Below, piece by piece: positions 15,702-48,227 of a stretch of 56,750 nt of DNA. Numbering within the stretch: position 1 is the stretch's first letter; every line of letters begins with the position of its first letter. The notes beneath the pieces were generated by a model. The model was not told the origin of the DNA. It searched no databases and saw only the letters and a list, made by a program, of their open reading frames with translations. The stretch is taken from the NCBI GenBank assembly GCA_021794645.1, contig JAJYQK010000101.1, positions 337 through 57,086 on the forward strand. Direction: 5' to 3'. The position numbers and the translations under genes are program-made. The stretch is from Actinomycetes bacterium. GTDB lineage: Bacteria > Actinomycetota > Acidimicrobiia > Acidimicrobiales > Bog-793.

Positions 15702-15767
15702 CCCAGCCCGGCCAGCGGCCCGGGCGCCAAGTCGAAGCGCTCGGGCCCGCCTGGCAGAATCACCCTC

Positions 15768-17345: not shown

Positions 17346-19035
<1,690 letters not shown>

Positions 19036-19039
<4 letters not shown>

Positions 19040-33629: not shown

Positions 33630-33783
33630 GCTTCCCCCGGCGGCGGCTCTGCCAGCGCCCTCGCCATAAGAAGAGGTCGGGCCGTCGGCGCCGACCGGCC
33701 TCGTGACCCCGCCGGAGGTTGTCTCGCGCCTGGCCGGCGGGGGCGGGGCAGCTGACACCGCCCTGTTGTACGGTCGGCTCGCC

Positions 33784-35688
33784 ATGGCTATCCCCGACGA
33801 GGACGTCGCCGCCGTCAGGCAGGCAACCGATGCGGTCGCCCTCATCGGCGAGTACACCCAGCTGAAGCGGGTCGGCCGGCGCTTTGTCGGCCTCTGCCCC
33901 TTCCACTCGGAGAAATCCCCCTCTTTCAGCGTCAACGCCGAGGAGGGCCTCTACTACTGCTTCGGCTGCCAGGCCTCCGGTGACCCCATCACCTTCCTCA
34001 GGGCTATCGAGGGGCTGAGCTTCGTGGAGGCCATCGAGCGCCTGGCGGCGCGAAGCGGCGTTCGCATCCGCACCGACGCCGAAGGCGCCGACAAGGAGGC
34101 TCGTGACAAGCGCCAGGCCCTCTTTGACGCCATGGAGAAGGCCGTGGCCTTCTACCACGAGCGCCTCATCTCCCATCCCGATGCCGCCCGGGCTCGCCAG
34201 TACCTCCGCTCTCGCGGTCTCGAGGGCGACATGGTGCGGCGCTTCAAGCTGGGCTGGGCGCCGGAGGGAGGCAACCAGCTGGCGAGGGCCCTGCGGCTCC
34301 CGACGGCGGCTCTCGCCGGTGCCGGCCTTGTCGTGCAGGGGAACTACGGGCCGCGAGACACCTTCCGGGGTCGGGTGATCTTCCCGATCTTCCAGGCCGA
34401 CGGCAAGGCCGTCGCCCTCGGTGGGCGCCTGGTGCCCGGCATCGGGGACGGCACTGGACCGAAGTACCGCAACTCGCCCGAGACGGCGATCTACCAGAAG
34501 CGCTCCACGCTCTATGGCCTCAACCTCGCCCGCCAGGCGATCGTCCAATCTGGCGAAGTGATCGTCTGCGAGGGCTACACAGACGTCATCGGCTTTCACC
34601 GGGTCGGCCTCGGCCGGGCTGTCGCCACCTGTGGCACCGCTCTCACCGACGATCACTTCAGGCTCCTCTCCCGCTTCGCCCGCCGCATCGTCCTCGCCTT
34701 CGATGCCGACGGGGCCGGTCAATCGGCCGCTGCCCGCTTTTATGAATGGGAGCGGCGTCATGAGGTCGAGGTGGCCGTGGCCGACCTGCCGGCCGGGAAC
34801 GACCCGGGCGATCTCGCCTCCGCTGACCCCGAGCGCCTGCGCGCGGCCGTCGAGAAGGCCCGCACCTACCTCGAGTTCCGTCTGCACCGGACCCTCGCGG
34901 GTGGAGACCTGCGCACCCCAGAAGGAAGGGCGAAGGTGGCCGAGGCCGCTCTGGCCGTCGTGGCGGAGCACCCGAACGACCTCGTTCGGGACCAGTACCT
35001 CGCCGAGGTGGCCGACCGCACCCGGATCGACCTCGAGCGGTTGCGGGGACGCCTCGGCGCCGCTGTCGAGCGCCACCGCTCCCCCCGCCGGACGCCCGCC
35101 GCTCCCGGACCGGCGGGAGGCGAGCGAGAGAGCCAGGCCGGCAACCCGCCGGTCGGTGAGCCGGCAGCTCCTGTCCGGACCCGCCGTCAGGCCCGCACAC
35201 CGGGGGAGAGGGCCGGGCGAGACGCCCTCGCCCTCGCCATCCACGAGCCTGCCGCCATGGCCGGCCGACTCGACGTCGCCCTGTTCGGCGAGCCGGTGCA
35301 AAGGGAGGCCTTTGCCGCCCTCTCCGCGGCAGAGTCCCTCCACGCCGCCATCGAGGCGGCCGCGGACGAGGCGAGCGAGCTGCTCGTCGAGCTCGCAAAC
35401 TCCGACCCGGACATCAGCGTCGACCAGGCGGTCGTCGCCCTCGTGCGGGCGGCCTCCACCGAGGTGGTGGCCGAGCTCGAGGCCGAGGTGCGAGCGGCCC
35501 AGCAGGCCGAGGAGGGCGAGCGGATCGCCCAGGCGGCCTCAGAGGTCGCCTGGCTCAAGTCCGAGCTCGAGCTCTTCAGCGAGGTCGGCACGGGCGAGTC
35601 GGCCCCGCGGGAGGTGACGGAAGCGGCGGAGCGGTTGGTAGCGTGGCTTGCACAAAGGCGGTGCGAATGCCGATCGGAGCGAGCATGA
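33784..35688 (+). CDS. dnaG: DNA primase
   Basis: Zinc finger [28 protein letters not shown]-polymerase core, and [17 protein letters not shown]...AFDADGAGQ. Confidence 0.9.
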
Positions 35689-36737
35689 GCAGAGCGGAGT
35701 CGCCAGACCCCCCCCTTGAGGAGGAGACCGCCGGCGAGAGGCGAAAGCCGCGCCTCGCCAGCATCCTCGCCGTCGCCGCCGAGCACCACCCGACGGGCAG
35801 CAGCTCGGCAACTGACCCCGTCCGGGCGTACCTGCGGGAGATCGGCAGGGTCTCCCTCCTCACCCAGGAGCTCGAGGTCCTCTGCGCCAAGCAGATCGAG
35901 GCGGGCATCGAGGCGCAGGCCGTCTATGACTCCTGGAAGGCCGAGGGGAAGCTCGACGAGGTGCCCCGGGCCGAGCGGCGCCAGGTGGAGCGGGCGATCG
36001 AGGAGGGCCAGGAGGCAAAGGAGCTCCTCATCGAGGCGAACCTCCGTCTCGTCGTCTCGATCGCCAAGCGGTACCGGGAGAAGGGCATGGCCTTCTTGGA
36101 CCTGATCCAGGAGGGGAACCTCGGGCTGATGCGGGCCGTCGAGAAGTTCGACTACAGACGGGGCTTCAAGTTCTCGACCTACGCCACCTGGTGGATCCGC
36201 CAGGCCATCACCCGAGCCGTTGCCGACCAGGCCCGCACCATCCGCATCCCAGTCCACATGGTCGAGACGATCAACAAGGTGATGCGGACCCAGCGCCTCC
36301 TCTCCCAGGAGCTCGGGCGGGAGCCGACGGTTGAGGAGATCGCCGACCGTCTCCAGCTGCCGGTCGAGCGGGTGCGCGAGCTGCAGCGGATCGGCCAGGA
36401 CACCGTCTCGCTCTCCCAGCCCATCGGAGAGGAAGAGGACTTCAGCCTCTCGGATCTGATCGAGGACCAGAGCGCCGAGGTGCCGGCGGACGCCGCCACC
36501 CGCGTGCTCTTGAACGAGGCGGTGAAGCGCGCCCTCGACGAGCTGACCGAGAGGGAGCAAGAGGTAGTGCGCCTCCGCTTCGGGCTCGACGACGGCCGGA
36601 TCCGCACGCTCGAGGAGGTCGGCCAGATCTTCGGCGTCACCCGGGAGCGCATCCGCCAGATCGAGACGAAGACGCTCGCGAAGCTGCGTCACCCGATGGT
36701 CTCGCGGCCCCTCCGCGAGTACGTGGACGGGGAGTAG
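35685..36737 (+). CDS. rpoD: RNA polymerase sigma factor, RpoD/SigA family
   Basis: Region 1.2 [17 protein letters not shown], region 2 [16 protein letters not shown]...[16 protein letters not shown], region 4.2 [23 protein letters not shown] overlap with the dnaG stop. Confidence 0.9.
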
Positions 36738-36746
36738 GCGGCTGGC

Positions 36747-37049
36747 CTAGCGGCCTGAGACGTCTATGGGCCGGCTCTCAGCCGAGCGCGAGCCGCCCCG
36801 CTCCGTCGTGGCAGAAGAGAGCGAGGCACCGAGCAGGTCGGTCATGCGTTCCCGGGCCATCGTGCCGATCGGCCCCTCGACGAGATCGGAGAGGCGCTCT
36901 CTCGCCAGCCCGCTCAGGGCCCGCAGCTTCTCGCTCGCCTCCTCTGGGGCAAAGGGCCGCTGCTTGCCGCCCGTGGCCAAGCCCGCCGCCTTGCGAGCCG
37001 CCCAGGCGCCGACGGCTGCTCCGATCACGAATCCGGTCTTGAACCTCAC
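36747..37049 (-). CDS. Hypothetical small protein with N-terminal membrane anchor (YtxH-like)
   Basis: 100-aa ORF. MRFKTGFVIGAAVGAWAARKAAG is a hydrophobic N-terminus, and the rest is helical and charged. Confidence 0.45.
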   Translation of the reverse strand: MRFKTGFVIGAAVGAWAARKAAGLATGGKQRPFAPEEASEKLRALSGLARERLSDLVEGPIGTMARERMTDLLGASLSSATTERGGSRSAESRPIDVSGR

Positions 37050-37146
37050 CCCTCCTGCTTACCCCGCTTCGCTCACCACCGCCACCGGCCCTGCTCAGCA
37101 GAGCGTTCGAGTGGGCCTCTTCCGAGTCGATAGGCTGACCCGGCGA

Positions 37147-37219
37147 TCCGGGGTAGCTCAATCGGCAGAGCAAGCGGCTGTTAACCGCTAGGTTGAGAGT
37201 TCGAGTCTCTCCCCCGGAG
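37147..37219 (+). tRNA. tRNA-Asn (anticodon GUU)
   Basis: Hand-folded cloverleaf. Acceptor stem TCCGGGG/CCCCGGA, D arm GCTC..GAGC, anticodon stem AGCGG/CCGCT with loop CTGTTAA, T arm GAGAG-TTCGAGT-CTCTC, discriminator G. No encoded CCA. Confidence 0.9.
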
Positions 37220-37233
37220 CTCTTCGGGGCGGC

Positions 37234-37644
37234 TCATCCCGAGCGGTCGGGTCCGGCCTTCTCGAGCGCTACCCGCAGCAGCACGCGCTTCTCGTCGATC
37301 ATCGCCTGGCGGTACTCGTCCCAGTCCGGATGCTCCCCGGCGAGCGAGCGGTAGTAGGAGACCAGCCCCTCCATCGCCTCGGGGAGCGCAATGATCTCGG
37401 CTCTCCCCTCCACCTGGAGCCAAGGACCATAGAAGCCGTCCGAGAAGACACAGAGGACCACGCGGGGGTCTCTACGCAGGTTGCGCACCTTCATGGCAGT
37501 CTCTCGGGTCGAGATGAGAAGCCGCCCCTCTTCGGCGAGAACACAGACCACCGGCGAGAGCTGGGGCGAGCCGTCCCGCTTGTACGTGCCGAGGACGGCT
37601 CTGTGCATGGTCTCGAGCTGCTCCAAGGCTCTGCTCATCTCCAT
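37234..37644 (-). CDS. PPOX-class (pyridoxamine 5'-phosphate oxidase-like) probable F420-dependent protein
   Basis: 136 aa. GTYKRDGSPQLSPVVCVL...LLISTRETAMKVRNLRRDPRVVLCV matches the typical split-barrel PPOX family pattern. Confidence 0.7.
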   Translation of the reverse strand: MEMSRALEQLETMHRAVLGTYKRDGSPQLSPVVCVLAEEGRLLISTRETAMKVRNLRRDPRVVLCVFSDGFYGPWLQVEGRAEIIALPEAMEGLVSYYRSLAGEHPDWDEYRQAMIDEKRVLLRVALEKAGPDRSG

Positions 37645-37704
37645 GTTGGGTCACCCTAGGTCCGCGCTGGCACCCCCACCAGCCACTGTGCGCCAGGCGG
37701 CGCA

Positions 37705-38931
37705 GTGAGGAGGAGGTCACCGGCGCGGCGGCGGAAGCTCTTTCTTGGCGCGGCTTTCACGATCGCCGCCTTGAACCTCCGGCCGACGATTGCGGCTGTC
37801 TCGCCGGTGCTGCAGGACATCCGGCGGACGACCGGCCTCACTGACGTCGGGCTGGCGCTGCTCACGACGCTGCCACTCGTCTGCTTCGGTCTGCTTGCTC
37901 CTGCCGCGCCTGGTCTGGTGCGCCGATTCGGGACAGGGGCGGTCCTTCTCTCCTGTGTCGGGCTCTTGGTGGCAGGCACGATCCTCCGCTCGGTCGGCCT
38001 GGTCGGCCTCTTTGCCGGCACAGTCGTGCTCGGCGTCGGCATCGCGGTCGCCAACGTTCTCATCCCCGGCATCGTGAAAGAGGACTTCCCCGAGAGGGCA
38101 GGCCTCATGACCGGGATGTACACGATGGCGCTCAGCGCCGGGCCGGCGGCAGCGGCCGGTCTGAGTGCCCCGCTCACCCATGCCCTCGGGGGCGACTGGC
38201 GCCTCTCGACTGCGCTCTGGGCCCTCCCGGGTGCTGCCGCCTTTTTCGTGCTCCTGCCCTTGCGTTCCCACCGGCGGCCCTCGAGCCTCGTACCCGCGCC
38301 CCGCCACACCGGGCTGTGGCGCGACCCTGTCGCCTGGGCTGTGACGCTGTTCATGGGCCTGCAGTCGCTCGAGTTCTACTCGGCCCTTGCCTGGCTCCCC
38401 ACGATCTTCTCGAGCCACGGACTCTCGGCCGATGCGGCAGGCGGCCTCCTTGCCGCCACAAACCTGGTCGGAATAGTCGCAGCGCTCTTCACCCCTGCGA
38501 TCACCGAGCGTCTGCCCGACACCCGGATCGCCATCTTCGGGTGCGTCGGCTTCCTGGCTGCTGGCACGGCAGGGCTCATCTTCGCGCCGGGCAGCCTCCA
38601 GCTCTTGTGGGCCGCGCTCCTCGGACTCGGTCAGGGCTCGGCCATCAGCCTTGCCATCTTGCTGATGGTCCTCCGCTCTCACGACCCTCAGCAGGCGATG
38701 CGGCTCTCTGGCATGTCACAAGGGGTCGGCTACCTGATCGCTGCGCTCGGGCCGGCCATGACCGGGGCCCTCCACCAAATCTTTGGTGGCTGGACCATTC
38801 CGCTGTCGGTGCTCCTCGGGATACTTGGCCTTATGGCCGCTTCGGGCTACATAGCCGGTAGAAACGGCAAGATCGGACCTGCAGAGGTCCAGATGGCCCT
38901 CGAGGAGAGCGGTAGCCTCGAGGTCCGTTGA
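37705..38931 (+). CDS. MFS transporter (CynX/YeaN-like)
   Basis: About 12 predicted TM helices. The N-terminal LNLRPTIAAVSPVLQDIRRTTGLTDVGLALLTTLPLVCFG resembles the CynX subfamily. Confidence 0.8.
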   Translation: MRRRSPARRRKLFLGAAFTIAALNLRPTIAAVSPVLQDIRRTTGLTDVGLALLTTLPLVCFGLLAPAAPGLVRRFGTGAVLLSCVGLLVAGTILRSVGLVGLFAGTVVLGVGIAVANVLIPGIVKEDFPERAGLMTGMYTMALSAGPAAAAGLSAPLTHALGGDWRLSTALWALPGAAAFFVLLPLRSHRRPSSLVPAPRHTGLWRDPVAWAVTLFMGLQSLEFYSALAWLPTIFSSHGLSADAAGGLLAATNLVGIVAALFTPAITERLPDTRIAIFGCVGFLAAGTAGLIFAPGSLQLLWAALLGLGQGSAISLAILLMVLRSHDPQQAMRLSGMSQGVGYLIAALGPAMTGALHQIFGGWTIPLSVLLGILGLMAASGYIAGRNGKIGPAEVQMALEESGSLEVR

Positions 38932-38953
38932 AAGCTGTCTGAGGCGGCTGCCA

Positions 38954-39026
38954 GGGCCCGTAGCTCAGTGGTCAGAGCAGGGGACTCATAATCCCTTGGT
39001 CGCAGGTTCGATCCCTGCCGGGCCCA
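38954..39026 (+). tRNA. tRNA with CAU anticodon (elongator Met, or Ile2 if lysidine-modified)
   Basis: Acceptor stem GGGCCCG/CGGGCCC, D arm GCTC/GAGC, anticodon loop CTCATAA, T arm GCAGG-TTCGATC-CCTGC, discriminator A. The paired 1-72 position argues against an initiator tRNA. Confidence 0.9.
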
Positions 39027-39099
39027 CAAGAAGGTTCATCGGATCTCAGCGGGGTCCGCTGTCGGTCGAGATCCGTCAGAACGCGACGAAGGTGCTCCA

Positions 39100-39580
39100 G
39101 GCTTGAGGTGTGAGCCAACAAAGCCGAAGCACCTACGTCATCACCGACCCTAGTCAGATCCTCGCCTCGCCGGGTGCCCTGAGAGACGTCCGCGTGCTGG
39201 AGCTCGCCCGGAGGGGCCGGTCGAGCCACGGTGTTGTTCGACGACCTTCGGTTGCGTGCGAGCCGGAAGGCGCACTCGAGGAGGTGACCATCCCAAGGGC
39301 TGGGCGGTGAGAGGGAGGGAGACGGTGTGATGGACGAGGCCAGTTCTCGCGAGTGACCAAGGTTCCCGTCAACTACAAGAGAACGAGGGCGTCGGTCGAC
39401 CCCTTCACGAGCTGGAAGGTGGCCAGGCAGACCGTGGCGGAACCGGCGCGCCCGGCGAGCACGGTGCGGATCCGCTCCGCCCGGTCGCAGGTGACGAACT
39501 CGAGCTTGCCCGCCCGCTCGGCGCCGAGGACGTCCAAGAAGGCCGACACGGTCGCCTTGCTGCGGCCCTCAGCCCCCCTG
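39100..39580 (-). pseudogene. ISL3-family transposase relic
   Basis: The minus-strand frame reads AEGRSKATVSAFLDVLGAERAGKLEFVTCDRAERIRTVLAGRAGSATVCLATFQLVKGSTDAL then a stop at 39373-39375. This matches the ISL3 transposase core as I recall it (GR..T...FF..LG.ER......V..D...W.........A..CLD.FHV). Downstream sequence keeps only frameshifted traces. The 5' part is missing. Confidence 0.5.
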
Positions 39581-41446
39581 GACCAGGTTCTGCTCGATCA
39601 CGCCACCGGAGGCGACGACCGTGCGCTGGTAGAGCACCTGCGAGGCCGCGCTGCCGTCCGAGCTGGCGTACGTCACCGTGCCGGTGGTGTCGCCGTTCTC
39701 GATGTTCGGCCCTCCCCCGGCCTGCAGGGCGCCGTAGCCGATGATGCTCTCCGAAAGGCTTGTCCGCCGAGTCGGGAGAAGCCCCCCCACCTGGGTGGCG
39801 ACATCGGTGAGCTGCTGGTTCACCGCGGCAGGCAGGAAGAAGCCGCCCGAGTCGGGGACGTAGCCGTTGGGCGCGTCGATGGTCCAGCTCGAGTCATCGG
39901 TTCGGTTGATGTCCGTGCCGGGGCCAGTGATGGTCTCCGAGGTGGCTTGGGTCTCCTCGCCGTGGACCCACTGGTAGCAGGGCCCGCTGCAGCTGTAGTC
40001 GATGTTCGACTGGTCGTTCTCGAACTGGAGGCGCTGGTCGAGCGTGTCGACGTAGGTCTGCCGCCCGACCGTGACAGTGCCTGCGATCTCGTAGGCCCTG
40101 CTCGCCGACTCCGTGAACACCGGGTTCCCGGAGCCGCCGTTGGCATCCTGCGTTACGACCTGCGAGCTGCCGGGGAACGAGAGCGTGTCGGTGAGGAGTC
40201 GGCCGCCCGTCGCGCCCTTCGCCGTGGTGAGCAGCAGGCTCCCCCCGCCGAGCCAATAGTTGGCGTTGTTCACGACCGTGAGGCTGATCGTGTGCGTGCC
40301 GCCAGCGAGCATCCCTGCGAAGGGGGTCAGGTCGAGGCGGTAGGAGGGGATGTCGAGGGTGTGGATCCCCGTGACCGGCTGCCAGATGAGCGGGTTGACG
40401 CCACCCGTGTAGACGTAAGGGAACGGCCACACCACGCCCGCAGGCGTGCCGTCGATCGAGACCTCGATCTCGCGGAACGCCGGTGACTCGGCCCACCAGA
40501 ACTCGTCGCCGATCTGACCGACCGCGTAGAGGTCGAGGGTGAGCGTGCTCGTGTCGCTCGGGAGGCTCACCGTTGCGGAGACGGTCGTGTTCTGAGAGTT
40601 GGTTCCGATCAGGCTGAGAGTTTTCGTCGCCCCCGTCGGAAGCAGCGGTACGACCTGGCTCGGCACGCCCGGCGCGACAGCCGGCGAGGCTGGTCCGGTC
40701 TCGTTGATCGCCGCCCCGCCAAGCGCCGGGTTGGTGATCGAGGCGGTGTGAACGGGCTGGAAGCCGCCGCCTGCGGGGTAGAAGAGCAGTTTGGCGGTGA
40801 TAACCGGAACCCCGGTATCGGTGCTGTTGGTGTAGTTGTCCACGTAGGTGGAAAAGGTCTGGCGCCCCTCGAGGAGCGGGAGGTACCCGGTCACGTCCTT
40901 CTCGATATGCCAGGTAATGCCAGCAGCGGTCGGCTCCGGCGTCACGCCGAGGAAGATCTCCGACGGCCCGGCGAAGATCTCGCACAGCCTGTCGTACTGC
41001 ACGCCCTGCTCCGTCCCGGTCACATCGAGCACCACCTCCGCCCAGCGGCCACTTGGGAGCGTGGTCGTGGTGACGGCGGGAGGCGGGCCGTTGCCGAAGG
41101 CAGCGTGGTCAGCGATCGTCACGACCACCGGGGTCGTGGGGGGGACCCGCACGGGCGGGTCAAGCGAGGTCGGGTTGTCGACCGTCGAGAACTCCGGCTG
41201 GTTCGACTGCGTCGCAGCGCCTCCGCCTGACACACCGCCCCCGCCAGAACCTCTGCTCCCTGTGGGAGCGCGCCCATCCCCCGGCACGTGAACCCGGTGC
41301 ACACCGGCCGGAGAGGCCAGCTCTCGCAACCGCGCCTGCCCTCCGGCGGCGGCCCCGGCGGCGAGGCTCGTCCCTCCCCCGACGAGCGCTACCACCGCCA
41401 ACCCCGCAACGACCCGTCCTCGTGCTCGTGACGCCCACGCGCTCAT
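39569..41446 (-). CDS. Secreted PNGase A-family protein (peptide-N4-(N-acetyl-beta-glucosaminyl)asparagine amidase A-like)
   Basis: DEFWWAESPAFREIEVSIDGTPAGVVWPFPYVYTGGVNPLIWQPVTGIHTLDIPSYRLDLTPFAGML closely parallels the plant/fungal PNGase A core (FREV.V.IDG..AG.VWPFPVI.TGGI.PL.W.P..G...FDLP.Y..ELTPF). Upstream GVQYDRLCEIFAGPSEIFLGVTPEPTAAGITWHIEKDVTGY also fits. Signal peptide MSAWASRARGRVVAGLAVVALVGG. Start at 41446 is preceded by GAGAGGGG; an alternative ATG is at 41515. Confidence 0.75.
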   Translation of the reverse strand: MSAWASRARGRVVAGLAVVALVGGGTSLAAGAAAGGQARLRELASPAGVHRVHVPGDGRAPTGSRGSGGGGVSGGGAATQSNQPEFSTVDNPTSLDPPVRVPPTTPVVVTIADHAAFGNGPPPAVTTTTLPSGRWAEVVLDVTGTEQGVQYDRLCEIFAGPSEIFLGVTPEPTAAGITWHIEKDVTGYLPLLEGRQTFSTYVDNYTNSTDTGVPVITAKLLFYPAGGGFQPVHTASITNPALGGAAINETGPASPAVAPGVPSQVVPLLPTGATKTLSLIGTNSQNTTVSATVSLPSDTSTLTLDLYAVGQIGDEFWWAESPAFREIEVSIDGTPAGVVWPFPYVYTGGVNPLIWQPVTGIHTLDIPSYRLDLTPFAGMLAGGTHTISLTVVNNANYWLGGGSLLLTTAKGATGGRLLTDTLSFPGSSQVVTQDANGGSGNPVFTESASRAYEIAGTVTVGRQTYVDTLDQRLQFENDQSNIDYSCSGPCYQWVHGEETQATSETITGPGTDINRTDDSSWTIDAPNGYVPDSGGFFLPAAVNQQLTDVATQVGGLLPTRRTSLSESIIGYGALQAGGGPNIENGDTTGTVTYASSDGSAASQVLYQRTVVASGGVIEQNLVQGG

Positions 41447-41639
41447 CGACGCCCCTCTCGCGCCCACCTGCCGAGATCCGACAGGGAACCTCTTTGCCAC
41501 TTTTACCACCGACATTGAGAGCCGGCAAGGGCCGGAGAACAGGCTAAAGCCCGGCAAGCTCAGGCCGGGGAACCGGGGTCGCAATCCGGTGCGCCGCCTG
41601 CCCGCGGGAGCGAGTTCTCCAAGATCTGCGCGATGTGGG

Positions 41640-41858
41640 GAACGGCTTCGCGTCGTCGGCCTCCCCCGAGGCCTGGCGGGACTTGAGGGCGTCATCGAGC
41701 ATGGTCATGCAGTAGAGGCAGGCCGTCGAGCCCACGTCCCTGCCGGTCTCGAGGGCCTGGCTGGTGCGCTCCGCGTTCGGCGTCCGGGTAGGTACAGCGA
41801 AGCTCGTCCCGCTATCGCAACCAGCGCACATCACCGAAGTGGCGGCGCAGGATTCCAA
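41640..41858 (-). pseudogene. Possible relic of a CCG-domain (Fe-S) oxidoreductase C-terminus
   Basis: The 104-aa ORF begins ...VMCAGCDSGTSFAV...ALETGRDVGSTACLYCMTMLDDALK. This is reminiscent of the C-terminal cysteine-rich domain of GlcF/LutA/HdrD-type proteins (CCG.GG ... GA..IVT.CP.C...L.D). It has no N-terminal part. Confidence 0.3.
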
Positions 41859-42091
41859 GGCCGTTCTGCGGGCCCAATCGTGCCCGACAAAGCAACGTGA
41901 GCCGTGAGCTCAAAGGTCGAGCCCCCTCCCTCGCCCTGGCTCTGATCACGCTCGACTCGCGCTGGTTGTCCCATCCACCACCGAGCGCCAACCCCCTGCC
42001 GCCGGGGGGGGTCCTGCGGGCGGCTGAGAGCACGCGAACTTCCTCGGCGTCTCGCGCTCGACAGGATGAAGGCAGAGAATTTTCTCCTCTG

Positions 42092-42119
42092 TTGCGCAGG
42101 GGGGGCAGCGATATACAGT
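42092..42119 (+). promoter_or_regulatory. Promoter candidate with G7 tract in the spacer
   Basis: TTGCGC (42092-42097), a 16-nt spacer containing GGGGGGG (42099-42105), then TACAGT (42114-42119, TAnnnT). It sits 37 nt upstream of the ATG at 42156, which has a GGGAGG RBS. Confidence 0.3.
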
Positions 42120-42155
42120 CGGCAGCAAGGTGTCACGACCGAGTGGGAGGCGGAG

Positions 42156-43400
42156 ATGATCCAGCCGAGCCAGACAGGAACCCGCTTTCTCTCGAGGTTG
42201 CCCGGGCGACGGGGCCGACGGCTCGCTACGGCGCTCTTGGCGGTGACCACGACACTCGGTGGCCTCGCCCTCCTCTCCCCGGGTGCTCCCCGGGCCGGTG
42301 CCTCCACCAGCCAATCCGGTTCGGGCGACTGCATCGCCCACCACTTCGCGTCGACGAGCAGCTACCCGATCTGGTACACGGCCGGTTGCAGCGGGCACGA
42401 CGAGCCTGAGCTCGACCCGGTCTCGAGCCTGCCCGGCTCGGCCCAGAACCTGACCTGGACCGCAGTGCTTCCGAGCGACGGCACCGTGCCGGTCTCGTCG
42501 GTCGGACCCACCTTCTGGTGGGGCGGCACGGTGACCGACCCGAACCCGCACGCCCTTTTCCACCAGGCCTTCGTCGAGGTGCAGTTCTACCCTGACGCCC
42601 TCGTCAACAACTGCAGCTCCGACGGCGGTTTCAACGTCAGCTACGTCCCGAACGACTTCACGGTCTGCTCACCGGTCTGGCAGGTGAGCACGCAGTCCAA
42701 TGCCGAGACGGCTGCCTTCAACGCCGAGCTCTACCAGGGTTCGAGCAAGCAGCCTCTCGTCATGCACGGCGGTGACACGATCCAGATCTACTTCCACGTC
42801 GTCTCGCCCTCGGAGGGGTGGAACGTCACGATCACCGACCTCACGACCGGCCAGTCGGGGACGATCGTTCTCAACAGCAAGTACGGGCCCCTCCTCCCGG
42901 CCTTCTCCACCCAACAGATCGGGAACTCCCTCGGTTGGGGCATCGTCCACGACACGCCCAACGCCTTCGTCTGGGAGATAGGTCACACCTCGCCGTTCAG
43001 TACCCCGGCCGCGCAGTACTGCGTGCCCGGCCAGGTGGGTTGCGACTCCTATGACGCCTCGCACTGGGCCGGCTTCTCCCCGCTCCAGATCAAGTCGGTC
43101 ACCTTCGCCGGCGGAGCCACGCCGAAGAGCTGGGCGGTCGTGAGCGACTTCGGTGGTACCGCCGAGGTGAACCAGTACTGCCCGAGCTACGGGGGCCCCT
43201 ACTGCATCTACCCGTGGTATTCCTGGAATTCCGCTGACAGCGCTTTCACCTATGGCATCGACTACCCCGGGACGAAGTTCGACTACGGGCAGGCCTCGCA
43301 ATTCGCCACCGCCCCCGACTGTGGCGGCCCCTTCGGTCCCGACACGACCTACTGCGATACCGTCTTGAAGCCGAGCCCCCCGGAAACTCCCGCTAGCTAA
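42156..43400 (+). CDS. Secreted Cys-rich protein of unknown function
   Basis: ATG at 42156 with a GGGAGG RBS. Arg-rich signal peptide RFLSRLPGRRGRRLATALLAVTTTLGGLALLSPGAPRAGA. The mature part has 10 Cys and a GCSGHDEPE motif. No family recognised. Confidence 0.7.
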   Translation: MIQPSQTGTRFLSRLPGRRGRRLATALLAVTTTLGGLALLSPGAPRAGASTSQSGSGDCIAHHFASTSSYPIWYTAGCSGHDEPELDPVSSLPGSAQNLTWTAVLPSDGTVPVSSVGPTFWWGGTVTDPNPHALFHQAFVEVQFYPDALVNNCSSDGGFNVSYVPNDFTVCSPVWQVSTQSNAETAAFNAELYQGSSKQPLVMHGGDTIQIYFHVVSPSEGWNVTITDLTTGQSGTIVLNSKYGPLLPAFSTQQIGNSLGWGIVHDTPNAFVWEIGHTSPFSTPAAQYCVPGQVGCDSYDASHWAGFSPLQIKSVTFAGGATPKSWAVVSDFGGTAEVNQYCPSYGGPYCIYPWYSWNSADSAFTYGIDYPGTKFDYGQASQFATAPDCGGPFGPDTTYCDTVLKPSPPETPAS

Positions 43401-43772
43401 CCCCTCCTCGGAGTCGGATCGGGCGCCGCCCGAGGCGGCGATGTGCGATCCTCCCGCCTTGTCTCGCGGTCCACCTGGGCGCTGCCGGCATCGAGAGAAG
43501 CGGCCTCGTCGGCGGTGGCCGGCGGTTGGTCTGCCAACAAGAGCTTGCCGGTCGACTACCGGACGTTGGCTGCGGCTCCCGCTCACCGTCGTGCCGCTAG
43601 CGCTGCTCGGCGCGACAGCGACCTCGCGGTTTGAGGCAAAGCCCGGCCGGGCAGGCATGCGCGAGCTGCAGCTGGCTCGGCGACATGCTGGTGAGTGCTG
43701 CACGACGGCTTTTTGCTGTCGCGGTCGGTGCTTGACCTATGTCACCGGGAGGTAGTCAACTGAGCGCTCGAC

Positions 43773-44594
43773 ATGGAAGGTGACGGCAACGCTGCCAAGG
43801 TGGCGGCGCAGCGACAGTCCGTCTGGGCAAGACGAACAACGAGTCTGGAGGTGTTCGCCGAGCGGATGCCCGCCTTTGCTGATGTCGAGCCGCAGACCGC
43901 CGACGCCCTCGGGGAGTACCTCGGCCTCAGGCGGGCGACGCTCTATCGGCGGTTCGGGCAGTCACCAGTTCGCGGAGCCTACGTGCTGGCGTGCTGCCAG
44001 CACCTCTACGCACCCTGGCGGGCCCTCCGGGTGTTTCAGGAGCACTCTGAGCAGTTCCCGGGCCTTTGGAGCAGCCGGCGCCGGGCCTTTCGGGCGCTCG
44101 CCTACGTCTTCATCGCCGCCATCGCCGCCCAGCGCCGTCTGTTCGAGCGCGGCCATCTCGCGGCTAGCTCCGGGGCGCTTTTGCGAGACGTCGATCTCAT
44201 CGCCATCATCGGTCGTGAGCGAGCCAAGCCAGCCCACACGACGCTCCAGCTCGACGAGGACGGCGTCGTCCCTCGCAGCTTTGAGTACATCCCGCTCCTG
44301 TGCGACGCGGCGGCTGGCTTCCTGTCGTTCATCGGCCTGCCCCGCAATCGGGCGCCCGAGATCGCTCGCCACATCGTCGAGGTCGGCGTCGAGGACCACG
44401 GGCCGAACATCATGGGGGCGGCGAACAGGGTGCTCTCCTGGGCGACGATGCTGATCGGGATCGCGGATGCGCCCAGCGCGGAAATCGAGGAGATGTGGCT
44501 CACGACCCAGCTGGCCGAGCGCCAGGCGCTTCGTGGCCCGGCCGAAGAGCTCTCCCACATGATCAGGCTCCTCCAGAGCGGGGGTGGCTGCTAG
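43773..44594 (+). CDS. Hypothetical protein with N-terminal HTH-like segment
   Basis: 273-aa ORF. ADALGEYLGLRRATLYRRFG resembles resolvase/Hin-type HTH motifs (LGVSRATLYRY). The remainder is unrecognised. No clear RBS. Confidence 0.5.
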   Translation: MEGDGNAAKVAAQRQSVWARRTTSLEVFAERMPAFADVEPQTADALGEYLGLRRATLYRRFGQSPVRGAYVLACCQHLYAPWRALRVFQEHSEQFPGLWSSRRRAFRALAYVFIAAIAAQRRLFERGHLAASSGALLRDVDLIAIIGRERAKPAHTTLQLDEDGVVPRSFEYIPLLCDAAAGFLSFIGLPRNRAPEIARHIVEVGVEDHGPNIMGAANRVLSWATMLIGIADAPSAEIEEMWLTTQLAERQALRGPAEELSHMIRLLQSGGGC

Positions 44595-45509
44595 GTGCTC
44601 GAGCCGGCCGTCGAGAGGGCCTTGGCCGAGCTGCTGCGGGGACTCGGAAGGAGAGCTCCTGATGCTGACCGCTTCGTCGCCTGGCGCTGGGGAGACCCGC
44701 CGTTTGCTGAGGACGTCTTCACCGACCCGGCCATCGCCCGGCGAGCTACGCGCCTGTATGTCTCTCGGATGGCATTGCACCGTCCGAGAGAGACCCTTTC
44801 CTTCGTCAAGTCCTGGCATGCCTCCCTGCTCGCTGCCGCCGAGCAACCGGGGCTCTCGCGAGATCTCCTGGTCTGTGGGGCTGCCTACAAGTGGGCCGGC
44901 GAGTTCGAAGAGTCCGTCTCGTGCCTGAGACAGGCCGTCGCAGTCGCCGAGACGGAGGCGGGGCGCCGCTCTGCCGCCATCTCACTTGCCAGCAGCCTCA
45001 GCTGGGCAGGCGAGCACGATGAGGCCGTCCAGGTGGCAGAAGATGCAGCCAAGGAGGTCATCGCCGCCTACGACGACGACCGCTCCCCGGCGCTGCTCGA
45101 GGCCGAACAGGTGCTGGCGAGCTGTCGCCTGGAGGCCGGCCAGGTCGACCTCGACCTCTGGGTCGACTTGAGAGAGCGGCGCTGGCGGGCCACCGGGCTT
45201 GCTGCGCCAGACACAGCCGTCGCCTTCTACGGAGTCGGTCGGTGCTGGCTCGAGACCGGGCATCTGCAAGCGGCATTGGCCTGTGCTGCGACTGCTGTCG
45301 CTATCCGAGATCAGTGCGTGCTGAGCGCATTCGACAGTGCCCGCATCGACTGGTTGCTCGCTGGTGCGGCGGAGCACGCTGAAGAGCTCCCCGACAAAGA
45401 CGAGCGGGCTTACTGGCAGGCCCGCGGCCGGGAGGCGGCGCGCCATGCCTCTTTCCTCCTGCTTGACGCCTGTGGTCCGGACCATCGGCTCGTGCGAGGC
45501 CGCCACTGA
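44595..45509 (+). CDS. Hypothetical helical-repeat (TPR-like) protein
   Basis: GTG immediately follows the upstream TAG. Repeated Ala/Leu-rich helix pairs (AAYKWAGEFEESVSCLRQAVAVAE, SLSWAGEHDEAVQVAEDAAK, GRCWLETGHLQAALACAATAVAI). Confidence 0.5.
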   Translation: MLEPAVERALAELLRGLGRRAPDADRFVAWRWGDPPFAEDVFTDPAIARRATRLYVSRMALHRPRETLSFVKSWHASLLAAAEQPGLSRDLLVCGAAYKWAGEFEESVSCLRQAVAVAETEAGRRSAAISLASSLSWAGEHDEAVQVAEDAAKEVIAAYDDDRSPALLEAEQVLASCRLEAGQVDLDLWVDLRERRWRATGLAAPDTAVAFYGVGRCWLETGHLQAALACAATAVAIRDQCVLSAFDSARIDWLLAGAAEHAEELPDKDERAYWQARGREAARHASFLLLDACGPDHRLVRGRH

Positions 45510-45687
45510 GGACGAGGGACGGCTCGTCAAGTCTGCAAATGAGACGTCTGCGCTCTTGTTGTTGCGTCGGCTGCCAACCACAATCAAGTCGTCGCCGCTG
45601 GCGGAGTAGGGGACATCTATGGGGCGACTGGGGAGAGCCGGGGGCAATGGACCCCTGCCCGCCAGTGGCGATTGCGCCCCGTAGCCT

Positions 45688-45719
45688 CTTGGTCACAGGC
45701 TCGATCCCGGCCGGGAGCA
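45688..45719 (+). repeat. Degenerate copy of the tRNA-Met 3' end (putative attR / tRNA remnant)
   Basis: cttggtcacaggctcgatcccggccgggagca compared with the tRNA sequence cttggtcgcaggttcgatccctgccgggccca (38995-39026) is 27 of 32 identical in the same orientation. gcgccccgtagc at 45674-45685 resembles the tRNA 5' end (gggcccgtagc). Confidence 0.55.
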
Positions 45720-45910
45720 CTGCCGGGGCCAAGACAGCACTGCCGGCCGGAGCCGGTCCTTTCCGGCCCATGGCAGCTCCGAGGTAGGCCGGCTCGACGA
45801 CCCGCTCGAGCGACGGCCAAGTGTCTGAACCGGTCCCGCAGGTACCCGGGAGGGCCCCCGGCCGCGGCGAACGCCGCCGCGAGGCGCTTTGCGCTGGCAC
45901 ACTGGCGGCC

Positions 45911-46648
45911 GTGAACAGGCACGTCGGTCCGGCGGCTCTCCCGGGAGAGGGCGAGGCCAGCCAGCACCGCCCAGGCATCCTCGTCGTCGACGACGAGCCC
46001 TCGATCGTCGACACGGTGGCGACGGTGCTCAGGTACGAAGGCTTCTCCGTCGACGAGGCGAGCGACGGCCGCCAAGCGCTCTCCCGTCTGCAAGAGAGCC
46101 ACTTCGATCTCGTCATCCTCGACGTCATGATGCCCGGACTGGACGGGCTGGAGGTGACCCGTCGCCTGCGGGCAGACGGCATCGAGGTGCCCGTCCTCTT
46201 CCTGACGGCCCGGGGAGAGACGGCCGATCTGGTCGCCGGCCTTGCCGCAGGCGGGGACGACTACATCGCCAAGCCGTTCTCCCTCGCCGAGCTGGTCGCT
46301 CGGGCCAAGGCCCTGCTGCGGCGGGCCGGGAGCACGAGCGGGGAGCGAAAGCTGCGCTTCGCAGATCTCACGATGGACGAGGAGAGCCACGAGGTGTGGC
46401 GGGGCGAGACACAGATCCAGCTGACAGCGACTGAGTTCAACCTCTTGCGTGTCTTCATGCTCAACCCGCGCCGGGTTCTCTCCAAGGCTCAGCTCATCGA
46501 CTACGTCTGGCACTACGACTTCGGCGGCAACCAGAACATCGTCGAGACCTACGTGCGCTACCTGCGCCGCAAGCTCGATCCACTCGGCCCTCCCCTGATC
46601 CACACCATCCGGCTCGTGGGATACGTCCTGCGGGAGCCGGACGCCTAG
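45911..46648 (+). CDS. OmpR-family response regulator
   Basis: Receiver domain (ILVVDDEPS...LVILDVMMPGLDG...LFLTAR...DDYIAKPF) and a winged-helix output domain (...LTATEFNLLRVFM...VETYVRYLRRKL...IRLVGYVL). Start is GTG at 45911, or at 45821. Confidence 0.85.
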   Translation: MNRHVGPAALPGEGEASQHRPGILVVDDEPSIVDTVATVLRYEGFSVDEASDGRQALSRLQESHFDLVILDVMMPGLDGLEVTRRLRADGIEVPVLFLTARGETADLVAGLAAGGDDYIAKPFSLAELVARAKALLRRAGSTSGERKLRFADLTMDEESHEVWRGETQIQLTATEFNLLRVFMLNPRRVLSKAQLIDYVWHYDFGGNQNIVETYVRYLRRKLDPLGPPLIHTIRLVGYVLREPDA

Positions 46649-46649
46649 C

Positions 46650-48227
46650 GTGTCGCTCCGCCTCCGACTCCTCATAGCAGTCGGGGTCGTCGTGGCGCTG
46701 GCACTGGTAGCCGTGGACATCGCCACCTACTCGGCCTACCGCTCCTACCTGGCGGGCCGGACGGACTCGAGCCTCGAGGCAGCAGCCGGACCCCTGGCGA
46801 GCTGCCTGGAAGAGGGCGGCCACCTGAAGCTGAGCCTCGTGGAGGAGTCGGCCCCGGGCGTGCTGGCCGAGCTGTGGTCGCCCGGCGGAAAGCAGCGCGC
46901 CTTCGTGGCCGCCGCCTCCGCCGGGCGGGGCGGTACCAGCCATCTCGCCCGTCCCCGCCTGCCCGGCTTCCCGGCTCAGGTTTTCACCGCCCCCCGCCAG
47001 AAGCAGGCGAGCGGGCCGATGAGCGACAACTGCCTCGACACCCTCTCGCCCGGTGAGCGGCTTAACCACCTGCCCGGCAGCCTCTCGTCCGGCAAGGACC
47101 TCGGGAGGGCTCTCACCCCCTCGTTCTCGGTGAGGGGCGTCTTCGCCACCTCTCCGGAGGTGAGCGAGAGCCAGCCCGCCTACCGCCTGCTCGGGGTCCA
47201 CCTGTCGACTGGCGAGGGCCTCGTCGTCGGCCTCCCCCTCACAGCGAACGCCGAGTCGCTCGGCCAGCTCCTCCTCATCGAGCTCGCCGTCTCGGCAGCC
47301 GCCCTCATCGGCGCCATCCTCATAGGGCTCTGGCTCGTGCGGATCGGGGTGAAGCCCCTCGTCGAGATCGAAGAGACGGCGGCCGCCATCATGGAGGGCG
47401 ACCTCGAGGCTCGCGTCCCGGACCGGTTCTCCCCCCGCACAGAGCTCGGCCAGCTGACCTTCGTCCTCAACTCGATGATCGAGCGCCTCTCCCAGGACAT
47501 CGAGGAGCGGATGGCGAACGAAAGCGCCCTCATGGCCTCCGAGCAGCGGATGCGGCGCTTTCTTGCCGACGCCTCCCACGAGCTGCGCACACCGGTGGCG
47601 GCCGTCTCGGCCTACGCCGAGCTCTTCGGTGCCGGAGCTGACCGGCGCCCAGAGGACCTCGTCAGGGTGCTGCGGGGGATAGCGAACGAGACCGACCGGA
47701 TGCGCCGCCTCGTCGAGGACCTCATGCTGCTCGCCAATCTCGACGAGGGCCGGCCGCTCGAGCGGCGGCCGGTGGAGCTCGTCGCGCTGGCGGCCGATGC
47801 GGTCCACGCGGCAGAGACCATCGGCGACTGGCCCGTCTCGCTCGTGGCCTCCGAGCCGGTCGAGGTGACCGGCGATGAGGCCCGCCTCCGCCAGGTCGTC
47901 GACAACCTCCTCTCGAACGTGCGGAGCCACACCCCGCCCGGGACGCCGGCCGAGGTGACCGTCTCCCGGCGGGGGGAGGAAGCCGTCATCGAGGTCGCCG
48001 ACCGCGGTCCGGGGTTGAGCGCCGCCGCCCGGGAGCTGGTCTTCGAGCGCTTCTTCAGAGACGACACCTCGAGAGCCAGGTCCTCGGGCGGCGCCGGGCT
48101 CGGCCTCGCCATCGTGCGGGCGATCGTCGAGGCGCACGGCGGGAGGGTGGAGGCGGGCGAGACGCCGGGCGGAGGTGCTCGCTTCACCATCGTCCTGCCG
48201 GCGAATCGAGACGGGGTGGCCGGGTAA
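46650..48227 (+). CDS. Sensor histidine kinase (two TM helices, HAMP, HisKA, HATPase_c)
   Basis: H-box FLADASHELRTPVAAV, N box VVDNLLSNV, G boxes VADRGPGL and GGAGLGLAIV. N-terminal TM helix, then a ~180-aa extracytoplasmic loop. Confidence 0.85.
   Translation: MSLRLRLLIAVGVVVALALVAVDIATYSAYRSYLAGRTDSSLEAAAGPLASCLEEGGHLKLSLVEESAPGVLAELWSPGGKQRAFVAAASAGRGGTSHLARPRLPGFPAQVFTAPRQKQASGPMSDNCLDTLSPGERLNHLPGSLSSGKDLGRALTPSFSVRGVFATSPEVSESQPAYRLLGVHLSTGEGLVVGLPLTANAESLGQLLLIELAVSAAALIGAILIGLWLVRIGVKPLVEIEETAAAIMEGDLEARVPDRFSPRTELGQLTFVLNSMIERLSQDIEERMANESALMASEQRMRRFLADASHELRTPVAAVSAYAELFGAGADRRPEDLVRVLRGIANETDRMRRLVEDLMLLANLDEGRPLERRPVELVALAADAVHAAETIGDWPVSLVASEPVEVTGDEARLRQVVDNLLSNVRSHTPPGTPAEVTVSRRGEEAVIEVADRGPGLSAAARELVFERFFRDDTSRARSSGGAGLGLAIVRAIVEAHGGRVEAGETPGGGARFTIVLPANRDGVAG

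Follow-up and report, generated by a model that had tools for sequence, protein, structure and literature searches.

Transfer RNA genes are a class of site used by tyrosine integrases. Cis-mobilizable elements (CIMEs) and integrase-less islets arise by the decay of integrative elements, and tandem accretion at one att site is known from the ICESt/CIME elements of Streptococcus. In the Islander work, a tDNA island is defined by a complete tRNA or tmRNA gene on one border and, on the other, a displaced fragment of the same gene in direct orientation; an integrase gene is required inside the island, and lengths range from 2 to 200 kb (Hudson, Lau & Williams 2015; PMC4383910). In the stretch of DNA analysed here (56,750 nucleotides in all from an uncultured Acidimicrobiales genome, hereafter the window), an initial annotation had proposed a decayed island that arose by site-specific integration into the 3' end of a tRNA-Met gene. 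The features of this region and of its borders are the following.

38954..39027 (+): intact tRNA gene with anticodon CAT (ARAGORN; Rfam tRNA, 74.9 bits)
38982-39027 (+): putative attL core, the 3' 46 nt of the tRNA(CAT) gene, identical to the attP of phage contigs L058/L059
38995..39026 (+): repeat copy 1, comprising variable loop, T arm, 3' acceptor strand and discriminator base; 27/32 against 45688-45719
39065..39211 (-): candidate remnant of the C-terminal end of an integrase (box II region), lacking statistical support (tblastn with the L058 integrase)
39385..39573 (-): relic of an ISL3-family transposase, about 63 aa of the DDE domain (PF01610)
39569..41233 (-): PNGase A-like secreted protein of 554 aa in public MAG annotations (PF12222; GC3 frame plot; gene call in L010/L011)
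41544..41858 (-): relic of coding character with weak similarity to (Fe-S)-binding proteins (GC3, tblastn)
41864..41940 (+): 77-nt segment homologous to DNA just to the right of the attR-like fragment in relative L040 (blastn, gapped alignment)
42156..43400 (+): Cys-rich secreted protein whose family is uncharacterised (motifs C-x-GHDEP, ELQFYPD and WEIGH)
43773..44594 (+): all-alpha protein of 273 aa, encoded by the first gene in a rare cassette of two genes (cluster search, model)
44595..45509 (+): 304-aa TPR-like protein, second cassette gene, its start codon directly after the stop of the 273-aa gene
45658..45687 (+): DNA just inside the putative attR that resembles the L058 P arm in register (15/30 identities)
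45674..45720 (+): putative decayed attR, a tRNA 3' fragment (copy 2; best-preserved part 45688-45719, 27/32 identities; upstream 14 nt 7/14 in register)
45911-46648 (+): OmpR-type response regulator (RR; longest ORF start 45821; Pfam)
46650-48227 (+): histidine kinase (HK; Pfam), forming with the RR gene the right-flank backbone 45911..48227

Like the Islander tDNA islands, the locus has an intact tRNA gene and a 3' fragment in direct orientation, the fragment is intergenic and lies outside conserved protein domains, and the 6.7 kb of the region is within the 2–200 kb range; the target is likewise a tRNA gene, the class of site of tyrosine integrases. It differs in that no integrase gene is present inside it, and in that the fragment is degraded and shorter than the 43–46-nt block found in two relatives (L034 and L040) and in the phage attP. 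By Islander terms the locus would count as a damaged or inactive element. The likeness to a CIME is that putative attL and attR sites flank the cargo and that recombination and transfer genes are lacking in the island; in addition, the same tRNA gene is the site of arrays and mini-islets in relatives, such as a 1.3-kb AbiE islet in L034. In contrast to a CIME, the att sites of the window carry several substitutions, which makes mobilisation in trans doubtful, and no helper element is present in the window.

The tRNA was named tRNA-Met in the initial annotation, but its identity is probably another one. The lysidine-dependent tRNA-Ile2 has the same CAT anticodon as tRNA-Met. The best E. coli match was the annotated tRNA-Ile (CAT) gene ileX, with 84–85% identity over the full length; the number of matching positions was 60 for ileX, 50 for the E. 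coli elongator tRNA-Met and 40.5 for the initiator. Because this best match is the tRNA-Ile gene that follows dnaG-rpoD, the tRNA(CAT) of the window is probably a tRNA-Ile2 (CAU). Both genes lie downstream of dnaG-rpoD, the E. coli order being dnaG-rpoD-mug-tRNA-Ile(CAT), whereas in the window a tRNA-Asn gene and PNPOx and MFS genes are placed between rpoD and tRNA(CAT).

The direct repeat was confirmed by alignment. In an ungapped comparison, the last 32 nt of the tRNA gene (38995-39026) matched 45688-45719 at 27 positions in the same orientation. This was the sole site with at least 22/32 on either strand of the window, and when the window was simulated 200 times with a first-order Markov model, scores peaked at 23/32. 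Copy 2 is located between the TPR gene (end at 45509) and the RR gene (start at 45821 or 45911), and it was not called as a tRNA by ARAGORN or Rfam. Among the only eight distinct tRNAs with which it was compared, the window's own tRNA(CAT) allele gave the best match (27/32): alleles of relatives reached 24/32, E. coli ileX 22/32, and the other tRNA types in the loci used, the window's tRNA-Asn (14/32) among them, did not exceed 14/32. Two E. coli tRNA-Met sequences gave 20/32 (elongator) and 16/32 (initiator). The repeat length of 32 nt given initially holds for the best-preserved part only, as the att block of L034, L040 and the phage measures 43–46 nt and starts in the anticodon stem/loop. 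Read in register, the 14 nt upstream of 45688 would correspond to a decayed anticodon-loop segment (7/14, reached by a fraction of 0.03 of the window positions). Copy 2 thus carries five substitutions in the 32-nt part and about seven in the upstream 14 nt, a load that, judged from the sequence, argues against att sites still able to recombine with an integrase supplied in trans.

Relatives were examined for the structure of the same locus. In the nearest one found (L033, RpoD 95% identical), the alignment with the window covered 33758-39033, i.e., to 6 nt past the tRNA 3' end. Beyond 39033 L033 shared nothing with the window, including none of the cargo, and its contig ends before any RR operon. 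Three other relatives had their own direct copies of the tRNA 3' part, each beside different genes. In L034, a 42-nt copy from the anticodon loop to the tRNA 3' end lies 1.3 kb downstream of the tRNA, and the two copies enclose no more than an AbiEii gene and the 122-aa ORF next to it. In L036, a copy from the T arm to the 3' end lies 6.7 kb downstream and runs about 20 nt past the tRNA; Fic, Usp and MFS genes are found in the interval, and the best reading of this structure is that elements accreted in tandem at one tRNA. In L040, a 45-nt fragment from the anticodon loop to the 3' end (95.6% identical) lies 2.3 kb upstream of the orthologous RR-HK operon, an arrangement that points to an ancestral link of this operon with the tRNA site. 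L039, L040 and L041 all keep the block RR-HK-ferric reductase-FMN_bind-ApbE-Kelch, and in L041, a more distant relative, the operon is not near any tRNA. The empty site expected from the initial annotation, with the tRNA gene directly followed by the RR operon, was not found in any relative or strain examined, and the same island was present in all long contigs of this species.

A counterpart of the left border was found in phages. Two phage contigs of IMG/VR (L058 and L059) contain a block identical to window positions 38982-39027 (46/46 nt), without a complete tRNA, 23 nt from a tyrosine integrase gene (PF00589, E 2.6e-15) and between tail genes and a DUF3631 gene; this block is a phage attP. 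The integrase gene is on the P' side, so that it would end up beside the tRNA after integration. At the other end, the DNA just inside copy 2 (45658-45687) resembled the L058 P arm in register, as would be expected from the geometry of an attR: the 15/30 identities compare with a window-wide mean of 7.7 ± 2.3, and a fraction of 0.0027 of the positions reached this value. Gapped comparison of the window arms with the L058 phage was not significant (P, p=0.4; P', p=0.2). The island differs from such temperate-phage modules, which target the block from the anticodon loop to the 3' end of a tRNA, in that it contains no phage gene and that no P' arm can be recognised in the window. It also gave no nucleotide match in the phage collection. 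A tie between the island and the L058-type phage family is only suggested.

Because of the synteny break at the tRNA end, the tRNA copies of the relatives and the phage attP, the tRNA 3' end is interpreted as a recurrent integration site and copy 2 as a decayed attR. It is likely that 39028-45720 represents the remains of at least one element integrated into the 3' part of tRNA(CAT) by tyrosine-recombinase site-specific recombination. With integration, the tRNA would have been restored on the left as attL (core 38982-39027), and its original 3' part would have been carried to the right border, where it forms the attR (45674-45720) immediately before the resident RR/kinase operon. The integrase and any transfer or phage genes would later have been lost by deletion, an ISL3 element would have been inserted and then have decayed, and the attR would have gathered substitutions until 27/32 identities remained in its best-preserved part. 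The remainder would be a fixed, integrase-less, mosaic islet with the PNGase A-like protein, the Cys-rich beta-sandwich protein and the 273-aa/TPR cassette. We infer the entry of the 6.7 kb by tRNA integration, the order of these decay events and the contribution of more than one event. The core of the initial proposal stood, on the break in L033, the fragments in relatives and the phage attP, but neither the empty site nor a single unit was borne out.

That no integrase remains had been stated before, and our searches agree with it. No integrase domain (PF00589) and no phage or conjugation gene were detected in the island genes or in six-frame translations of the non-coding parts. The only trace was at 39065-39211, where tblastn with the L058 integrase gave E=5 and 31% identity in a 49-aa match that does not keep the catalytic residues; Pfam found nothing in this frame, and the sole favourable point of the trace is the expected place and strand beside the attL.

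Among the cargo, the PNGase A-like secreted protein was confirmed by a match to PF12222 (E 1.4e-54). The ISL3 relic, which abuts the stop codon of the PNGase-like gene and corresponds to a 58-aa ORF in public MAGs, matched PF01610 with E 2e-4 at profile positions 32–94 of 240, but the assignment is marginal, with 21.7 bits against a cut-off of 23. The proposed Fe-S oxidoreductase relic at 41544-41858 has a frame GC3 of 0.86–0.88 and marginal tblastn matches (E 4e-4 to 8e-4) to plasmid genes annotated as '(Fe-S)-binding protein', but no match in Pfam or NCBIfam. The Cys-rich secreted protein, previously described as of no known function, indeed had no sequence match in Pfam, NCBIfam or PDB; its family comprises 462 cluster representatives at E≤1e-3, and the domain also occurs as the N-terminus of 800–1660-aa proteins with PKD or InlB-type repeats. 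Its model is a beta-sandwich of moderate confidence (pLDDT 61.7), for which Foldseek returned weak matches to neprosin, HC7 and lectins. As for the pair called HTH-like/TPR-like, the two genes are adjacent and the second one matched TPR_12 (E 1.1e-6) and related TPR families, but all below the Pfam cut-offs, and the HTH label comes down to a weak TetR-like fold match of a low-confidence model of the 273-aa protein. Only four clusters of the latter were obtained by a word-indexed search of a collection of 5.8 billion clusters, and in every case its gene had the TPR gene behind it, even in L050 and L051, whose surroundings are unrelated. The cassette is found in three unrelated contexts, once beside an rve_2 fragment.

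A rival reading, in line with the initial annotation, is that the region was acquired as one element that simply lost its integrase, with no mosaic structure. The single pair of boundary repeats would be in accordance with this, as would the GC content, which is fairly even along the island (66–70%), and the lack of a significant third tRNA fragment inside (the candidate at 41846-41881 scored 28, with noise up to 39). Codon usage, however, is heterogeneous. The PNGase-like and Cys-rich genes have a typical codon-bias index of 0.20, against 0.29 for the 273-aa gene and 0.378 for the TPR gene, the latter being the most atypical in the window (GC3 0.76). Moreover, an internal segment is homologous to attR-proximal DNA of L040: positions 41904-41940 (37 nt) matched at 84% in blastn (E 7e-4 for the island against L040, 4e-6 for 300-nt junction segments), and 41864-41940 reached a gapped local score of 60, above a shuffle maximum of 45; it is a possible internal module boundary. 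Because of this shared segment, the IS relic and the occurrence of the cassette alone in unrelated loci, the island has the look of a mosaic to which several events contributed, not of one unit, and the tandem accretion read in L036 also speaks against a single acquisition, which we regard as rather unlikely. The compositional deviation from the flanks was modest: GC is 67.7% in the island and 70.5% and 71.1% in the flanks, only the cassette genes have atypical codon usage, and tetranucleotide distance is highest in windows over about 37–47 kb (0.17–0.18), but it reaches 0.17 elsewhere.

Less probable still, indeed quite improbable, is a pseudogene origin of copy 2: a full-length tRNA would have been duplicated and its D and anticodon arms lost by an internal deletion between two TGGTC-containing stretches, and the intervening DNA would then not have to be an integrated element. 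The initially reported short match to the 5' end of the tRNA bears on this point. The sequence CCCGTAGC (45678-45685), directly upstream of copy 2, is present as stated and is identical to the acceptor/D-stem junction of the tRNA 5' half, 8-mers of which are found in only 0.75% of all 25-nt windows. It is nevertheless weak evidence, as the same 8-mer has chance matches elsewhere in the window (23552 and 27187), and those inside genes (23552, 27185) include even a 13-mer of the tRNA 5' end. The same bases match equally well, without any deletion, the decayed anticodon-loop segment, and they align in register with the phage P arm. Furthermore, the fragments of L034, L040 and the phage start in the anticodon loop and that of L036 in the T arm, all of them without the tRNA 5' half, and a pseudogene leaves the synteny break at the tRNA end unexplained. 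A chance likeness in ordinary fast-evolving chromosome, for which the T-arm sequence GGTTCGATCC common to many tRNAs and the spurious matches of GC-rich DNA could be invoked, is effectively refuted by the simulated maximum, the lack of any other comparable site in the window and the low score of the tRNA-Asn. An att site also fits the orientation, the location between genes and the similar fragments seen in three relatives and in the phage attP.

A worn-down remnant of mobile DNA inserted at a tRNA gene is a common and well-understood kind of feature, and the island of the window would be an ordinary new case of it, with the exception of its poorly characterised cargo genes. A tentative and rather doubtful reading is that the cargo that outlasted the decay is more than junk, that the PNGase-like and Cys-rich proteins form a glycoprotein-scavenging module and that, separately, the 273-aa/TPR pair is a new mobile regulatory or defence cassette. 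In that case the Cys-rich protein, in which the motifs C-x-GHDEP, ELQFYPD and WEIGH are invariant and whose model has weak fold matches to the glutamic peptidases neprosin and HC7, could belong to an undescribed family (462 clusters) of glutamic-peptidase-like or lectin-like hydrolases, a family that would also supply the heads of large surface proteins bearing PKD or InlB-type repeats.

The region between tRNA(CAT) and the response regulator-histidine kinase (RR-HK) operon (39028-45720) is an integrase-less and probably composite genomic islet, and tRNA(CAT) is a recurrent integration hot spot in the Acidimicrobiales. Two tRNA genes were found in the window by ARAGORN, and the gene layout was obtained from a GC3 frame plot together with public gene calls:

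Upstream backbone, in order: PPDK, DnaG, RpoD (35685-36737), a small ORF, tRNA-Asn, PNPOx (minus strand), MFS (37705-38931), tRNA(CAT)
37147-37220: tRNA-Asn (ARAGORN)
38954-39027, plus strand: tRNA with anticodon CAT (ARAGORN; Rfam, 74.9 bits)
~39385-39573, minus strand: ISL3 relic (PF01610, E 2e-4, 21.7 bits)
39569-41233, minus strand: PNGase A-like protein (PF12222, E 1.4e-54)
41544-41858, minus strand: coding-like relic
42156-43400: secreted Cys-rich protein
43773-44594: 273-aa protein
44595-45509: TPR-like protein (Pfam matches all under cut-offs)
Downstream, in order: second copy of the tRNA 3' end, OmpR-type response regulator, histidine kinase, ferric reductase, FMN_bind, ApbE, Kelch protein

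The last 32 nt of the tRNA (38995-39026) were compared with the window by an ungapped scan of both strands. The sole other place with at least 22 of 32 identities was 45688-45719 (27/32, direct orientation), and the best score in 200 first-order Markov simulations of the window was 23/32. The repeat coordinates and identity count of the initial annotation were exact, and the match is well above chance. Its longest exact run is 8 nt; a repeat search with a 9-nt seed missed it and reported only chance-level repeats. The second copy is intergenic, between the TPR gene (end 45509) and the RR gene, its T stem has lost pairing, and neither ARAGORN nor Rfam called it as a tRNA. Eight distinct tRNAs formed the comparison set for this copy, and no match to it was obtained by BLAST against E. 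coli genomes. A promoter and terminator scan gave nothing exceeding shuffles. The second copy is most plausibly a decayed attR, the right end of an integrated element.

A tRNA pseudogene with an internal deletion is a possible but less parsimonious reading of the same copy. It draws on the short match to the tRNA 5' end noted in the initial annotation just upstream of this copy, and CCCGTAGC is indeed present at 45678-45685. However, 8-mers from the tRNA 5' half occur in 0.75% of all 25-nt windows, the CCCGTAGC 8-mer was found again at 23552 inside an unrelated gene, and 13 nt at 27185-27197, inside a ROK-family gene, match the tRNA 5' end exactly (GGCCCGTAGCTCA), a match that does not extend and looks like chance, illustrating how easily short tRNA-like matches arise in GC-rich DNA. 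Moreover, the bases at 45678-45685 also fit the anticodon-loop segment of the tRNA in register, with no deletion (7/14, fraction 0.03). The deletion is therefore the less parsimonious explanation, and the 5'-end match is weak evidence.

The label tRNA-Met is probably not right as to identity. Any tRNA with a CAT anticodon receives the Met label from ARAGORN and gene callers, and this gene is a reminder of it. Its closest E. coli counterparts, 84-85% identical over the full length, carry the annotation tRNA-Ile, and 60 positions are shared with E. coli tRNA-Ile(CAT), as against 50 and 40.5 with the E. coli elongator and initiator tRNA-Met sequences; hence, the gene is probably a lysidine-dependent tRNA-Ile2. 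In E. coli O157 a tRNA-Ile with a CAT anticodon directly follows dnaG-rpoD-mug (L060, the E. coli locus, 3001-3076), and the dnaG-rpoD-tRNA(CAT) linkage seems to be kept between Acidimicrobiales and E. coli.

In order to test the left boundary, relatives were chosen from the genomic contexts of the closest RpoD homologues. The closest is L033, with 95% identity in RpoD. It aligns collinearly with the window (78-86% nucleotide identity) through ROK, tRNA-synthetase, PPDK, DnaG, RpoD, tRNA-Asn, PNPOx and MFS, and its alignment stops at window position 39033, 6 nt past the tRNA 3' end; the other 7.3 kb of its contig have no match anywhere in the window. The backbone and tRNA(CAT) are retained in L034/L035 (86%) and L036/L043-L045 (88-89%), and the genes after the tRNA in L034 (AbiEii) and L036 (Fic, Usp, MFS) are wholly unlike those of the window. 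Therefore, synteny breaks off sharply at the tRNA(CAT) 3' end throughout the lineage. Comparison of the relatives' islands with that of the window by tblastx and tblastn returned noise only (bit scores <40), and the cargo is unrelated between genomes. A scan of genome contigs with the MFS protein gave relatives of ≤48% identity only, with no synteny, and one of metagenome contigs with the histidine kinase gave relatives of ≤55% only (≤46% over matches longer than ~100 residues).

Copies of the tRNA end were also present in these relatives. In L034 a second copy, 42 nt long, starts in the anticodon loop and runs to the tRNA 3' end; it spans 43 tRNA positions, of which one is deleted, and is found 1.3 kb downstream. 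The pair (12549-13952) encloses only the AbiEii gene and an adjacent 122-aa ORF, forming a 1.3-kb mini-islet. The 19 nt after the tRNA recur there 89 nt beyond the second copy, a pattern suggestive of att remnants that are nested or in tandem. In L036 the T arm and 3' end are copied 6.7 kb downstream, and the repeat runs ~20 nt past the tRNA (TTTGCCCAGTTCAGA); this 6.7-kb Fic/Usp/MFS island at the same tRNA (12223-19040) has the same arrangement in L043-L045.

The right-hand side was addressed through loci with orthologues of the RR-HK operon. One of them, L040 (HK 65% identical, same gene order through DLH), carries a clean 45-nt tRNA fragment (anticodon loop to 3' end, 95.6% identical to the window tRNA). 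This fragment lies 2.3 kb upstream of the RR gene, an arrangement that links the tRNA site with the operon in a second lineage and supports the RR operon as the original right-hand neighbour. The stretch to the left of the fragment (1-3725) contains RHS-type and beta-propeller genes, among them one for a beta-propeller protein of 909 aa and a partial gene with many RHS/YD repeats; it resembles an island of the polymorphic-toxin type that occupies this hot spot. In L041, a more distant relative, the operon is located elsewhere with no tRNA nearby.

IMG/VR was scanned for a 43-nt block of the tRNA. Two related phage contigs, L058 and L059 (GC 67-68%), contain 46 nt identical to window 38982-39027 and no complete tRNA:

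L058 9126-9171 and L059 1118-1163: 46-nt attP block
L058 9194-10282, opposite strand to the block: tyrosine integrase, 362 aa (PF00589, E 2.6e-15, N-terminal SAM-like domain)

In L058 tail genes (tape-measure-like, ConA-like fibre) lie on one side of the block, and the integrase, 23 nt away, and then a DUF3631 gene on the other. This layout is that of a temperate-phage attP, and it shows this very tRNA allele to be a target of tyrosine integrases. The phage P' arm motif CAGGTCAGAGGCTATA was found again in L036 at the same offset after the tRNA (15/16, p=0.003). The motif GCAGGTCAGAGGC is repeated on both arms and may be an arm-type binding site. The arm evidence is weaker in the window: gapped comparisons of both arms with those of the phage fell short of significance (p=0.2 and 0.4), and the 30 nt upstream of copy 2, where the P arm is expected in an attR, match it in register at 15/30 (window-wide mean 7.7 ± 2.3; fraction reaching 15, 0.0027). 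No nucleotide match to the island was obtained in plasmid and phage collections.

The genomic island proposed at this tRNA is upheld as to the repeat and its attR reading, but probably not as a single unit. The IS relic adjoins the PNGase-like gene. The 273-aa/TPR pair, for which only four protein clusters were found in a 5.8-billion-cluster collection, recurs as a unit in L050 (3671-5437), between sirohaem/PAPS-reductase genes and uppS-recO with no tRNA nearby, and in L051 (36-1778), followed by an rve_2 transposase fragment, in the sample that contains the MAG of the window. Homology of both loci to the window is limited to the two cassette genes. In all three unrelated contexts the pair is head-to-tail, the second gene starting right after the stop of the first. 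Furthermore, a mid-island segment (window 41864-41940) shows homology to the sequence that directly adjoins the L040 tRNA fragment on its right (E 7e-4 and 4e-6; score of the gapped alignment 60, shuffle maximum 45). Because of the IS relic, the cassette recurring elsewhere and this mid-island homology to attR-proximal DNA, several events are a likelier origin of the 6.7 kb than a single element. A third tRNA remnant considered at 41846-41881, just upstream of the L040-like segment, was rejected (score 28; background reaches 39).

No empty site, in which the RR operon would directly follow the tRNA, was found in contigs of the species or in the relatives examined. Exact-protein matching traced the window to an uncultured MAG (GCA_027417535.1, contig DAHZWI010000016.1), and the RpoD homologues put it in the Acidimicrobiales. 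Contigs 99.8-99.9% identical to the window are present in several metagenome assemblies, all long contigs of the species carry the island unchanged, and exact-protein look-ups with the MFS and kinase proteins revealed no strain without it. In short-read contigs the breaks fall within the tRNA and the RR gene: six Logan contigs (five runs) start within 30 nt of each other in the RR gene 3' end (46503-46534) and three others end inside the tRNA (38982-38989), breaks that are probably assembly-graph branch points from paralogues or co-occurring relatives. The sole variation seen among the species contigs is in the first 21 nt of L012 (sample SRR33230343), just upstream of the TPR gene, which differ from window 44566-44594 and hint at a strain variant of the 273-aa gene end or a different junction.

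The compositional signal is modest and uneven, as expected for old or same-clade acquisitions. The GC content of the island (67.7%) is lower than that of its left (70.5%) and right (71.1%) flanks, and the tetranucleotide distance from the window average peaks at ~37-47 kb (0.17-0.18), although 0.17 is also attained elsewhere. The 273-aa gene (index 0.29) and, above all, the TPR gene (0.38, GC3 0.76) have atypical codon usage, but that of the PNGase-like and Cys-rich genes (0.20) is ordinary. Lower GC was also observed elsewhere: window 1-3457 (62-64%), where unannotated ORFs (e.g. 138-1178, minus strand) adjoin the gene for a D12-class adenine methyltransferase (2369-3457), is a possible restriction-modification module, and an AddAB/AdnAB-like helicase-nuclease pair follows at 3477-9928. 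A second such region (10001-15000, 65-67%) contains Hsp20 and alpha/beta-hydrolase genes and ORFs without a Pfam match, and the hut operon (HutH, HutU, HutI, 15768-20274) lies downstream of it.

Among the labels given to the cargo in the initial annotation, PNGase A-like is firm. The ISL3 match is marginal, below the 23-bit cut-off, and the Fe-S relic has tblastn matches (E 4e-4 to 8e-4) to plasmid genes annotated as '(Fe-S)-binding protein' but no Pfam or NCBIfam match. TPR matches do exist, albeit all sub-threshold, and phmmer of this protein against the PDB gave E>0.5 only. HTH-like rests on faint TetR-like matches of a low-confidence, all-alpha model of the 273-aa protein. The Cys-rich secreted protein of unknown family was confirmed: it has a twin-arginine-like signal peptide, and its family, so far uncharacterised, comprises 462 cluster representatives. 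In this family the motifs C-x-GHDEP, ELQFYPD and WEIGH are invariant and cysteines are conserved, and the domain is also N-terminal in 800-1660-aa proteins with PKD or InlB-type repeats. Its model, of moderate quality (pLDDT 61.7, pTM 0.69), is a beta-sandwich; weak Foldseek matches (TM 0.2-0.4) to neprosin (a glutamic peptidase), an HC7 glycopeptide-binding enzyme, alginate lyase and lectins are a lead, not an assignment, and the family profile found nothing among PDB sequences. No cargo protein matched PADLOC or NCBIfam. No integrase was found in the genes or in six-frame translations of the non-coding parts, in agreement with the absence noted earlier; a possible C-terminal trace at 39065-39211 (minus strand, E=5) is suggested by position and strand only.

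A tDNA with a displaced fragment is the signature described for genomic islands (PMC4383910). The region has both but lacks the integrase of such islands; judged from its sequence, it appears built like a tDNA-integrated island but an inactive relic. It is a textbook case of a tRNA used as a repeated landing site whose mobile machinery has since eroded. The secreted beta-sandwich family and the rare two-gene cassette, both poorly characterised, are flagged and may repay structural or biochemical study. An integration hot spot is mapped in little-studied, uncultured Acidimicrobiales, downstream of the conserved dnaG-rpoD-tRNA(CAT), and is paired with a phage attP/integrase module that could serve as a site-specific integration tool for the clade.
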